Source of the DNA: Syntrophorhabdaceae bacterium
Lineage (GTDB): Bacteria; Desulfobacterota; Syntrophorhabdia; Syntrophorhabdales; Syntrophorhabdaceae
Reading direction: 5' to 3'
DNA: 64,000 nt
Assembly: GCA_963665295.1 (NCBI GenBank)
Contig: OY762209.1
Span: 2,944,001-3,008,000, forward strand
The translations under genes and the position numbers were made by a program. Shown piece after piece: positions 13,026 through 17,114 of the stretch. Each line of letters starts with the position of its first letter. The stretch's first letter is position 1. A model generated the notes under the pieces. It made no database searches, was not told where the DNA came from, and worked only from the letters and a program-made list of their open reading frames with translations.

Positions 13026-13412
13026 TTGAAGGCCGTAGTCAAAACACTTTTGGTATCCCTGTGTCTCTGGCTTTCGCTTTCCGCATGTCATACCGTCGTG
13101 CAGAAGCTCTCTTATACCCAGGGGGACCGTGGATGTGAGGTTGAGGTGTTTGAAAAAGGAGCGGAAGGGAATTGCCTCACGAAAGACCGGGCTCCGGTCT
13201 CATTTTCCCTATGGTCCACGCGCATACCCAATTACTCGATCATATTTCAAGGACTGAACAGTAATGACCCGGATTTCACCCCTATGTACGGGTTCGTCGT
13301 CAACGATGTGGAGCAGGAGCCCAGCGATGATCTCTGGAAAAGGCTGTTACAGGACCCCCAAATGCTGTGCAACCGGGCATGCGGACCTGCCGACTGGCTT
13401 CTCGTGAGATAG
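13026..13412 (+). CDS. hypothetical lipoprotein
   Basis: AAGGAGGT RBS, TTG start, hydrophobic leader ending in LSAC. Confidence 0.55.
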   Translation: MKAVVKTLLVSLCLWLSLSACHTVVQKLSYTQGDRGCEVEVFEKGAEGNCLTKDRAPVSFSLWSTRIPNYSIIFQGLNSNDPDFTPMYGFVVNDVEQEPSDDLWKRLLQDPQMLCNRACGPADWLLVR

Positions 13413-13424
13413 CCATCGCATGCG

Positions 13425-13579
13425 GTTCCGGTTCATGCCCCGTGCGGGAGCGGCTTCTTTCTTCGTGTCTCTCGTGTTCCCGTTGACGTTTCAACCCACG
13501 CCCCCGCAGGGCAGCAAAAACTTACGCTCAATATTAGTAGATTATCAGGAGTTTCAACCCACGCCCCTTTGAGGGCGGC
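13425..13579 (-). CRISPR. degenerate type I-C CRISPR mini-array, 3 repeats / 2 spacers
   Basis: Repeats begin on + at 13425, 13488 and 13551 (exact 63-nt period). In minus sense: GCCGCCCTCAAAGGGGCGTGGGTTGAAAC, GCTGCCCTGCGGGGGCGTGGGTTGAAAC, GCCGCTCCCGCACGGGGCATGAACCGGAAC. Spacers are 35 and 33 nt; the array starts 77 nt after the cas7 stop. Confidence 0.85.
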
Positions 13580-14497
13580 ACCATCATTTATTGCTTACGG
13601 AAACCAGGCCCGAAGGCCGGTTCCGATCGGTTCCTCCGTCGGTCTTTCTCCGGCGCTCAGATCTTTTCCTCCATGGTCACTCCATTCGGCAGCCTGTCCG
13701 TATCGACTGCAATCACGTAGTCGGTGAAGGCGCGGGCAGGTTCGGAATCGTCCCTGCGACGACCCACACGAACAAGGTCAAACAGCTTATGGGCGGGAGC
13801 GTTGCCCAAAGCGGAATCATGCTTGAATACCATGAGCCTTCGGGCATTCATCTTTCCTCTTGAGGCGGAATGATCATGGTCGAACATATTTACCAGGGAG
13901 TCCCAGAATAACTGGAGGTCTTCCCCAGAGAAACCTGTCTGCTGAGCGAGATGAGCGGATACGTAGCCTTCGGCGCGATAGAGCGCGTAGGGAACGATGT
14001 GTTTCCTGCCCATGGTGCGGTTATCACCGCCCTGCTGCTCCGCTTCCTTCTCGGTAGCCACGGCCATCCTTGTAATGCTTACCTCCGTGGGAACAATGGC
14101 CTCGATGCTGCGGGCAAAACAGAGTTGCACGGGACCCCGGACCTGCCCACAGTTTATTTCGAGGGCCATGACCGCCCCAAAGGTGCGCACGTCGTAGAAA
14201 TTGGCGCACATCCAGGCCCGGGCCTTCTCCACTTCATCCGCCGTGCCTTTGCGTCCTTTTCCGCTCACCCTGTCTTCGACTCCCACGGCTTGATGGGCGC
14301 GCCTGTGGGTCTGGTTGAGAATGGCCTTTTCCCGTACATAGATTTCATAGGGAGACTGATTGCTCTTCGCGATTTCAACGAAGTTCCGGACCTTCCTCTT
14401 GAGGCAGACGTCGGTTACCAGGCCGAAACTTGTCTCCGGGTCGATGCGGGGCATGTTTCCCGCATCGGGGTCTCCGTTGGGGTTTCCGTTTTCCACA

Positions 14498-16941
<2,444 letters not shown>

Positions 16942-17114
16942 TCACCAAAATTAGTCTGCCCCATGCGAGTAAAAAGCCAACCCACAGTCACGTAACCGGG
17001 AGGATGAGCCGCCGTATTGTAATTGTTGGCGCGTTAAGCTTTAGAGCAACATGGCGGGTCTCGAGCGGAGCTTCCACGCGGGTTCGTTTTTCACCGTTGG
17101 TGATTTGCACACAA

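Follow-up and report, generated by a model that had tools for sequence, protein, structure and literature searches.

A type I-C Cascade without Cas3, accompanied by a worn three-repeat array and a guide matching a benzoyl-CoA reductase gene, may have turned from defense into a gene-binding regulator

Natural guide-directed regulation by Cascades, the effector complexes of type I CRISPR systems, has so far been documented mainly for cas genes and the toxins linked to them. Partial complementarity is described as turning CRISPR RNAs (crRNAs) into regulators (PMC10120712; 10.1101/2024.10.29.618823), and only 12 mini-arrays with three or more repeats are listed (PMC10120712). Here we describe a locus in a 64,000-nucleotide (nt) stretch of the genome of a Syntrophorhabdaceae bacterium (contig OY762209.1, positions 2,944,001 to 3,008,000; the whole stretch is called the window below), in which the cas5c, cas8c and cas7c genes of a type I-C Cascade are followed by three worn repeats (R1 to R3) and two spacers, the first of which matches the catabolic gene bamB-1. 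Through the analysis of what has been kept and what has changed in this locus, we arrived at the proposal that its orphan Cascade may have turned from defense into a gene-binding regulator. Each component is known by itself: type I-C Cascades, mini-arrays whose guides are partial, and derivatives without Cas3. What appears to be undescribed is their combination, a nontransposon chromosomal orphan Cascade with a worn array of its own and a guide that matches a host catabolic gene, in a genome where a second I-C effector set has taken over its array. A literature search whose coverage excluded subscription journals retrieved no description of a nontransposon I-C Cascade that lacks Cas3 and possesses an array directed against a metabolic gene of its host.

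The reading that we favor, and to which we assign an even chance of being right, is that the locus encodes a type I-C Cascade that has been domesticated for binding alone and uses a few fixed guides of its own. It is suggested by the retention of the repeat handles and stem bases, of the 21 nt of the first guide proximal to the protospacer-adjacent motif (PAM), and of the three cas genes, unlike the outcome of uniform decay. Within the 5.5-Mb genome, spacer 1 (TCCTGATAATCTACTAATATTGAGCGTAAGT) matches strongly at a single site, C1:5394340..5394310, which lies 2.4 Mb away (blastn E = 2e-5 against its own genome). Bases 1 to 21 of the spacer are identical to C1:5394340..5394320, with the type I-C PAM TTC directly 5' of the match; the mismatches are at positions 22 and 26 to 29 and, if the spacer is taken to be 35 nt long, also at 32, 34, and 35. 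The probability that all mismatches lie at the distal end by chance is 0.0015 for a spacer of 31 nt and 1.3e-4 for one of 35 nt, and none of 400 shuffled versions of the spacer had an exact match longer than 16 nt. No other TTC-flanked seed match of at least 10 nt was found in the genome. Spacer 1 is therefore a partly complementary, PAM-flanked guide that matches at its seed end, which cannot be said of spacer 2. Of the "two fixed guides" postulated in the preliminary description of this locus, the first has a PAM-flanked self-target with mismatches only beyond base 21, which speaks in favor of that description, and the second has no recognizable target.

The matched sequence corresponds to codons 52 to 62 (SPDNLLIFSTG) of bamB-1, an uninterrupted open reading frame (ORF) of 653 amino acids (aa) whose product is the BamB protein of class II benzoyl-CoA reductase and aligns over its full length with the solved BamB in PDB 4z3w_A at 1171 bits. 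It is followed by genes for a 4Fe-4S protein and for HdrD-like, FdhD-like, and HdrA-like proteins. The paralogous gene bamB-2 (BamB 69% identical) differs from spacer 1 at nine positions and lacks the TTC. Since spacer 1 has the sense-strand sequence of bamB-1, crRNA1 would pair with the template strand. The distal differences do not fall at third codon positions and, read in frame, would give LSVS where BamB has FSTG; therefore, spacer 1 is not a copy of a diverged functional homolog. With up to three mismatches, the 21-mer is present in 18 of 96 genomes of the order, the bacterium's own included. Among 12 loci that were read, 8 are bamB-type genes of other genomes carrying the 21-mer with one to three differences (6 with TTC), and the exact 21-mer occurs only in the genome's own bamB-1 allele. 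Searches of IMG/VR in which every sixth base was left free gave four matches to spacer 1 that cover 18 to 21 of the 31 bases, none of them with a TTC PAM.

The repeats also show an uneven distribution of changes. The array is on the minus strand after cas5c-cas8c-cas7c, on the same strand as these genes, with R1 starting 75 nt past the cas7 stop codon and 13 nt separating the end of R3 from a convergent 128-aa ORF, whose stop codon is at 13410-13412. That it consists of three mutually different repeat-like units with an exact 63-nt period had been noticed before, and we recovered this value for both end-to-end spacings; it is probably a coincidence, as hairpins that have become shorter and spacers of normal length together amount to 63 nt. 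R1 and R2 differ at 11 of their first 15 positions and at none of the last 17 (Fisher p = 1e-5), the latter constituting the identical 3' 17-mer GGGGCGTGGGTTGAAAC reported earlier. The 3' end of R3 is decayed, as had also been stated: of the 17 positions of this 17-mer it shares 11, and the remaining six have all changed by transition. Ordinary arrays, too, usually end in a decayed repeat. In line with the expectation that standard finders would miss the array, automatic detection was poor: Tandem Repeats Finder gave no detection, and Rfam gave only a subthreshold hit of CRISPR-DR9 to R1 (17.6 bits versus a gathering score of 45).

In the arrays of the nearest relatives of the locus, the consensus repeat is GTCGCCCCCCGCGCGGGGGCGTGGATTGAAAC; two of the related loci fetched have arrays ending in GAATTGAAAC, two more have a terminal T, and the arrays of all the rest end in GGATTGAAAC. 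When R1 and R2 are compared with this consensus with the register held fixed, their first 15 nt show 15 differences in 30 positions and their last 17 nt show 2 in 34 (p = 1e-4, with block boundaries that were picked after the data had been seen), and both of the latter differences are one identical A-to-G change shared by R1 and R2. The 5' part of R2 can alternatively be explained by a 4-nt deletion plus two substitutions, in which case the contrast is weaker (p = 0.0085); in our alignment, R2 as a whole differs from the relatives' repeats by the 4-nt deletion and about three substitutions. A canonical type I-C repeat has 32 nt, with a 7-bp stem, a 5-nt loop, a 2-nt 5' overhang, and an 11-nt 3' overhang, and its processing by Cas5c needs the stem base and the 11-nt 3' overhang (PMC8524198). 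In the mini-array, it is the 5' overhang and the loop that have changed. The stem base has been kept, as have the U-G-G and the remainder of the 11-nt 3' overhang, an overhang that R1 and R2 retain apart from the single shared change. As we read the alignment, the 5' stem arms of the three repeats contain four substitutions, each of them a C to U that preserves a G-U pair. Since the blocks kept are those that Cas5c needs and the handles are retained, the pattern, as far as three short sequences and an inferred ancestor can speak, fits constraint on crRNA processing. The earlier proposition that selection accounts for it better than random decay is thus strengthened in part, both by this correspondence and by the adjacent Cascade genes, which are intact and selected.

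The stems named in the preliminary description, of 6, 6, and 5 bp including G-U pairs and with loops of 4, 3, and 5 nt, do exist and correspond to the minimum free energy (MFE) structures of R1 (-10.1 kcal/mol) and R3 (-7.2 kcal/mol). In R2 the named stem is possible, but the MFE structure (-9.2 kcal/mol) is an alternative pairing that uses handle bases. None of the hairpins is more stable than expected from shuffled sequences (z = -0.34, -0.33, and +0.45 for R1, R2, and R3), the corresponding value for the genome's regular large-array repeat being -1.75.

The three cas genes upstream of the array (Table 1) all score above the curated NCBIfam cutoffs with full-length profile matches, and the Pfam assignments agree. 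Cas5c matches the solved Cas5c chains of Xanthomonas oryzae and of the Desulfovibrio vulgaris Cascade with 264 to 266 bits, and the K-H pair of its AKHKEV motif aligns with GKH in both; Cas7c is 78 to 80% identical to the Cas7 of the nearest relatives. The small subunits of I-C systems are reportedly made by internal translation within cas8c (McBride et al. 2020). In this gene, an intact internal ATG at Met450 is preceded, five bases upstream, by the Shine-Dalgarno sequence AGAGGAGG, and it is the probable start of the Cas11c small subunit. With respect to the features of a complete type I-C system, Cas5c, Cas8c, and Cas7c are thus present, and Cas3, the cas4-cas1-cas2 genes, and the leader are absent. 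No remnants of cas3, cas4, cas1, or cas2 were recovered from either flank by blastx against the ORFs of related loci, and a comparison of the sequence before R1 with the leader of the genome's large array gave a score of 22, within the range of shuffled sequences (mean, 19.3; maximum, 30).

Table 1. Features of the orphan Cascade locus, in positions of the window. Repeats are placed in a 32-nt register, read on the minus strand as R1 13582..13551, R2 13519..13488, and R3 13456..13425.
Feature	Position	Strand	Basis or remarks
cas5c, pre-crRNA endonuclease and Cascade subunit, 216 aa	16252..16902	-	NCBIfam TIGR01876, 195 bits (cutoff 85); Pfam Cas_Cas5d
cas8c/csd1, large subunit, 585 aa	14498..16255	-	NCBIfam TIGR01863, 561 bits (cutoff 219), full length
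Probable internally translated Cas11c small subunit, 136 aa, inside cas8c	14498..14908	-	Met450 and upstream AGAGGAGG
cas7c/csd2, backbone subunit, 307 aa	13657..14580	-	NCBIfam TIGR02589, 413 bits (cutoff 182)
G+C-rich hairpin GGAACCGGCC-UUCG-GGCCUGGUUUCC between cas7 stop and R1	13598..13625	-	Sequence reading; no U-tract after it
Repeat R1	13551..13582	-	6-bp stem CGCCCU/GGGGCG, loop CAAA, 11-nt 3' overhang UGGGUUGAAAC
Spacer 1	13520..13550	-	31 nt in the 32-nt register, effectively about 35 nt (to 13516); bamB-1 match
Repeat R2	13488..13519	-	Possible stem UGCCCU/GGGGCG, 3-nt loop, same 11-nt overhang UGGGUUGAAAC as R1
Spacer 2	13457..13487	-	No target found
Terminal repeat R3	13425..13456	-	5-bp stem GCUCC/GGGGC kept in 5' half; 3' handle part decayed

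None of the three genes contains a frameshift or a stop codon. We could further examine the selection acting on them through a landfill metagenome (run X6), which contains short contigs that are about 91 to 93% identical at the DNA level to parts of cas7, cas8, and cas5. In the stretch of cas8c at 14549-14924, 31 of 33 changed codons are synonymous and 2 are conservative, in a count that is based on 35 of the 46 differences between the window and this relative. This ratio indicates that the cas genes are maintained by purifying selection; the frameshifts, stops, and relaxed selection of a degraded self-targeting locus were not seen. Another contig of the same run is 91% identical to 16942-17100, upstream of cas5, a stretch that is unlike all 100 related loci that we compared, and the relative therefore probably shares the cas3-less border. 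In a FastTree phylogeny of concatenated Cas5, Cas8, and Cas7 (56 rows after removal of 5 duplicate or near-duplicate rows), the terminal branch of the window is only modestly long (0.24 versus 0.20 for its sister). Two further runs (X4 and X5) yielded short contigs with loose ends at GATC sites, which we read as proximity-ligation DNA.

The same genome encodes a complete type I-C locus at C1:1161600-1181000 (L152), with 94 repeats and 93 spacers. Our comparisons revealed this locus to be a hybrid: its four-helix-bundle protein, Cas4, Cas1, and Cas2 are 72 to 83% identical to those of the orphan Cascade's relatives, and its repeat is identical to one of theirs at 30 of 32 positions, with its Cas3, Cas5, Cas8, and Cas7 only 23 to 35% identical to the orphan lineage. 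Its Cas8 has 773 aa and scores below the family cutoff, and no relatives of it at E <= 1e-40 were found in 400 sampled genomes of the phylum. The similarity of the adaptation genes and of the repeat indicates that the orphan Cascade is the effector lineage that normally goes with the large array and its adaptation module. The genome's only Cas3 homologs are the one at 1.175 Mb (34% identical) and one in a complete type I-E system (C1:2435000-2445000; L154), which comprises Cas3, Cse1, Cse2, Cas7e, and Cas1e and at least 13 repeats containing GTTCCCCGCACACGCGGGGATGAACCG. Two old spacers of the large I-C array, 84 and 85, match the genome perfectly after TTC at C1:2513777-2514192 (L139 7778-8193). 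The two sites are separated by about 400 nt and belong to a gene of a resident prophage whose product combines phage DAM-like methylase and GNAT domains. A further match, of spacer 91 to 3737606-3737639, has one mismatch and lacks the TTC. The two perfect TTC-flanked self-targets mean that self-targeting is tolerated in this cell and hint at an inactive or inhibited type I-C system.

On the basis of these observations, the following mechanism can be conceived. The array would be transcribed with, or just after, the cas operon, and Cas5c would cut at the 3' base of the stems of R1, R2, and R3 to release two crRNAs. The 11-nt overhang of R1 (UGGGUUGAAAC) would become the 5' handle of crRNA1, and from R2 crRNA1 would take its 3' hairpin and crRNA2 its 5' handle. 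Cascade loaded with crRNA1 might then recognize TTC and form a partial R-loop of about 21 bp on the template strand of bamB-1 but not on bamB-2. Given the lack of a dedicated Cas3 and the mismatched PAM-distal end, this would amount to binding without cutting, which in turn might modulate the expression of the benzoyl-CoA reductase operon. The diverged repeats, together with the mismatched distal end, may prevent guide-driven self-cleavage by the complete type I-C system. The weakest step of this proposal is the size and direction of the effect on bamB-1. In its most far-reaching form, which we put forward only tentatively and judge to be less likely than not, the proposal is that a chromosomal type I-C Cascade without Cas3 and adaptation genes was exapted as a trans-acting RNA-guided regulator of core anaerobic aromatic catabolism, with the tungsten-subunit gene of class II benzoyl-CoA reductase as its target. 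Its guides would have been fixed, its diverged repeats and incomplete complementarity would keep them private from the complete type I-C system, and the effector would have been reemployed once its array and adaptation genes had passed to a distant effector cassette.

Several points weigh against a binding-only regulator. A cas3-less type I-E Cascade with a template-strand guide away from the promoter produced little repression (PMC4288209), a type I-C CRISPR interference (CRISPRi) study favored nontemplate guides within ORFs (PMC10865793), and the known crRNA-like regulators target promoters in or beside cas loci and not a distant coding region (PMC10120712; 10.1101/2024.10.29.618823). The purifying selection on the Cascade could stem from use of the 93-spacer array; as the repeats of that array are those of the orphan Cascade's own lineage, the Cascade could be selected for large-array crRNAs. 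Spacer 2 has no target in the genome (no match with fewer than eight mismatches and no TTC-flanked prefix of at least 10 nt), in IMG/VR (no match with every sixth base left free), or in phage and plasmid records (only chance-level BLAST matches, E = 4). The distal 10 nt of spacer 1 match bamB at 5 positions (p = 0.08), as might be seen in a chimeric spacer produced by one rearrangement. The hairpins fold no better than shuffled sequence, R2 with a different MFE fold, and the arrangement appears confined to a single genome, no homologous mini-array having come to light in the loci and genomes searched. The restriction to one genome, the template-strand site in the middle of an ORF, and the possible use of the large array are among the reasons for which we hold the favored reading at no better than an even chance.

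Two sets of searches underlie the restriction to one genome. We collected 30 genome and 70 metagenome loci by Cas8c similarity (best full-length identity, 72%), nearly all of which are complete type I-C loci with arrays that begin at least 3 kb after cas8. Among the 30 genome loci, cas3 is found upstream in 27 and cas4 downstream in 27, and the exceptions are contigs that end too early or one locus (L024) with cas3 present and cas4 and cas1 absent. None of the 100 loci, the nearest with Cas8c 72 to 73% identical, has a homologous mini-array, and a pattern combining the handle with the spacer 1 seed had no match in 96 genomes of the class or in IMG/VR. Of the 69 genomes of the family, 10 gave a match to Cas8c, with identities of at most 70% overall and 61% in the same genus.

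A handle-like 9-mer occurs within 700 nt after cas7 in 14 related loci, of which the 4 with a match within 200 nt were read; 2 of these (L033 and L107) have it in coding sequence and 2 (L100 and L122) have a true repeat right after cas7. In L100 (2243-2280), a degenerate repeat-like unit lies directly after the cas7 stop and before a small ORF, and a regular array follows about 450 nt past it with no cas4, cas1, or cas2 between. In L122 (1141-1171), a single well-kept repeat directly follows the cas7 stop and the contig ends 100 nt later. Four other loci possess a degenerate two-repeat mini-CRISPR just upstream of cas5 (L016 5135-5400, L017 5132-5400, L018 684-950, and L026 5135-5400), the first unit of which ends in TTGTGGATTGAAAC and the second of which retains a hairpin; a spacer of about 28 nt starting with AATGTGATGAT is common to all four. 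This element looks like the known self-regulatory crRNA-like kind. Further, a 30-kb metagenome contig (run X6, record 18) shares two exact blocks with window positions 13534-13564, one of 15 nt (the R1 handle with its derived G plus one base) and one of 14 nt (spacer 1 bases 4 to 17). The blocks are 5 nt apart there (2 nt in the window), the flanks are unrelated, and the depth is unlike that of the cas relative. They represent either a related element in another organism or chance.

The main competing explanation, which we regard as less likely than the favored reading, is that the locus is a relic of autoimmunity. A complete I-C locus would have acquired the bamB-1 spacer at the leader-proximal position and then lost cas3 and later the adaptation genes, and the array would have shrunk and be decaying. 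The mini-array would be functionless now, and the Cascade would be kept, if at all, for, e.g., the crRNAs of the large array. Self-targeting spacers are reportedly linked with degraded CRISPR loci (Stern et al. 2010), and several features of the locus accord with such a history: the self-matching spacer occupies the leading position beside the cas genes, at which arrays gain new spacers; cas3 and cas4-1-2, present in 27 of the 30 related genome loci, are missing; the repeats flanking the self-matching spacer are degenerate; and the kinship of the large array's repeats and of its Cas1, Cas2, and Cas4 with the orphan lineage means that the Cascade could be selected for those crRNAs. Uniform decay does not predict, however, that there should be 0 changes in 21 PAM-proximal positions versus 5 in 10 (or 8 in 14) distal ones, or 2 differences in 34 positions versus 15 in 30 in the repeats. 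In type I systems, which rely on seeds, escape from self-targeting is expected to proceed through the seed, the PAM, or loss of the spacer and not through distal changes. The Cascade genes are also free of frameshifts and stops, with the 31:2 excess of synonymous codon changes, and as the two perfect TTC-flanked self-targets of the large array are tolerated, self-targeting alone need not have forced the gene loss.

We consider it improbable that the locus is a remnant or the cargo of a mobile element, such as a type I-C CRISPR-associated transposon (CAST), or that it supplies a guide in trans to the Cas3 of the complete system, with bamB as a homing or interference target. I-F3 transposons are said to combine short arrays, atypical repeats, and mismatched chromosomal guides (Petassi et al. 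2020). I-C Cascades lacking both cas3 and adaptation genes have been reported beside TnsABC-TniQ (10.1101/2021.08.16.456562), and the complete type I-C locus of this genome does possess a Cas3. Against a mobile element, a Pfam and NCBIfam scan of the neighboring genes, which extended about 13 kb to either side, found none from Tn7 and none coding for a transposase, TnsC/TniB, or TniQ, the target is an uninterrupted 653-aa ORF at a distance of 2.4 Mb, and the G+C content of the locus is that of its flanks. A TniQ profile search of the genome had no match, and its control likewise gave none. As to Cas3 acting in trans, the low identity (23 to 35%) of the other locus's effectors, Cas3 included, makes cross-recruitment uncertain. 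Finally, that two leftover repeats merely happen to retain their 3' halves and that the bamB match is a coincidence is very unlikely. In its favor are the small numbers (three repeats and two spacers), hairpins that do not surpass shuffled sequences, and block boundaries chosen after the data were seen. Against it, the 21-nt exact match has E = 2e-5 in this genome with 0 of 400 shuffles exceeding 16 nt, its first base is spacer base 1, the type I-C PAM directly precedes it, and the repeat asymmetry has p <= 0.0085 even by the conservative count.

The neighbors of the locus are ordinary chromosomal genes, coding for an HD-domain protein, a TPR protein, a glucan phosphorylase, a CheW-receiver protein, and a Cache-domain protein. 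The upstream neighbor is the HD-domain protein, of 186 aa; in one genome of the same genus, the flanking HD and TPR genes are present without cas genes. A CreTA-type toxin beside the mini-array was considered and rejected, as there is no room for one in the 75 nt upstream or the 13 nt before the convergent ORF downstream. About 28 kb from the cas genes, the window encodes a DDE transposase (PF01609; 45182-46543, minus strand), the only mobile-element gene among the 35 window ORFs scanned up to 46543. At the other site, a location of bamB-1 in a prophage or island was likewise rejected; a Mu-like prophage begins about 38 kb away (C1:5432000-5450000; L138), with a Mu transposase HTH, TniB/AAA, Mor, and gp27, and large-array spacers 52 and 74 match it imperfectly. 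Before bamB-1, a promoter-like stretch of about 50 nt occurs twice in tandem, about 100 nt apart (L012 8560-8880). It comprises TTGACA-18-TATAGT and then the palindrome GTGAATACATTCAC, and the tandem copies are also visible as two overlapping small ORFs with near-identical translations.

If the favored reading is correct, a CRISPR effector can become an ordinary trans-acting regulator outside transposons and plasmids. The locus would then provide a natural case for studying how much complementarity suffices for binding without cutting, how repeats can drift with Cas5c processability retained, and how self-destruction is avoided in the presence of two type I-C effector sets. If it is a relic instead, it still illustrates clearly which parts of an array are the last to decay.

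A comparison with known systems helps to place the locus. It resembles degraded self-targeting loci in that the leader-proximal spacer matches the cell's own DNA, cas genes are missing, and the repeats around that spacer are mutated, but here the remaining cas genes are intact and selected, and the seed, PAM, and handles are preserved. In I-F3 elements, as here, the repeats are atypical, guides match a site in the chromosome imperfectly, and a canonical system of the same type is present as well. Like the Cascades of CASTs (I-F3, I-B, and the reported I-C), the one described here has cas5, cas7, and cas8 without cas3 or cas1-2, and their arrays are short or absent; unlike them, it has no tnsABC or tniQ nearby, is not beside its target, and has an intact target gene. 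The dev locus of Myxococcus xanthus retains adaptation genes and an array, unlike the locus here, and to our knowledge no guide-directed target has been tied to its phenotype. Nonetheless, it is a precedent for type I-C Cascade proteins with a nondefense regulatory role in a related bacterial group (10.1101/2023.07.26.550624). Nine type I-C CASTs are reported without any array (10.1101/2021.08.16.456562). Engineered type I CRISPRi resembles the proposed arrangement in joining Cascade and a crRNA with no Cas3 and, for type I-C, a TTC PAM (PMC4288209; PMC10865793), but the present locus is natural and its template-strand ORF guide has an orientation that was poor in the type I-E study (PMC4288209). 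A close parallel is found in CreA of CreTA, CreR, and other crRNA-like RNAs (crlRNAs), which likewise consist of degenerate repeat-like units beside cas genes with a more degraded downstream repeat (PMC10120712; 10.1101/2024.10.29.618823), an organization that the mini-array, with its degraded distal unit, reproduces. Also shared are the PAM and the seed-proximal match with incomplete complementarity, from which Cascade is expected to bind without cutting. Those RNAs target promoters of cas, toxin, or cargo genes of the same locus and belong to complete, Cas3-bearing systems, whereas here the match lies not in a promoter of such a gene in or near the locus but inside the coding region of a catabolic gene, the distant bamB-1, 2.4 Mb away, and the guide is encoded in an array of three repeats beside a Cascade without cas3 or adaptation genes.

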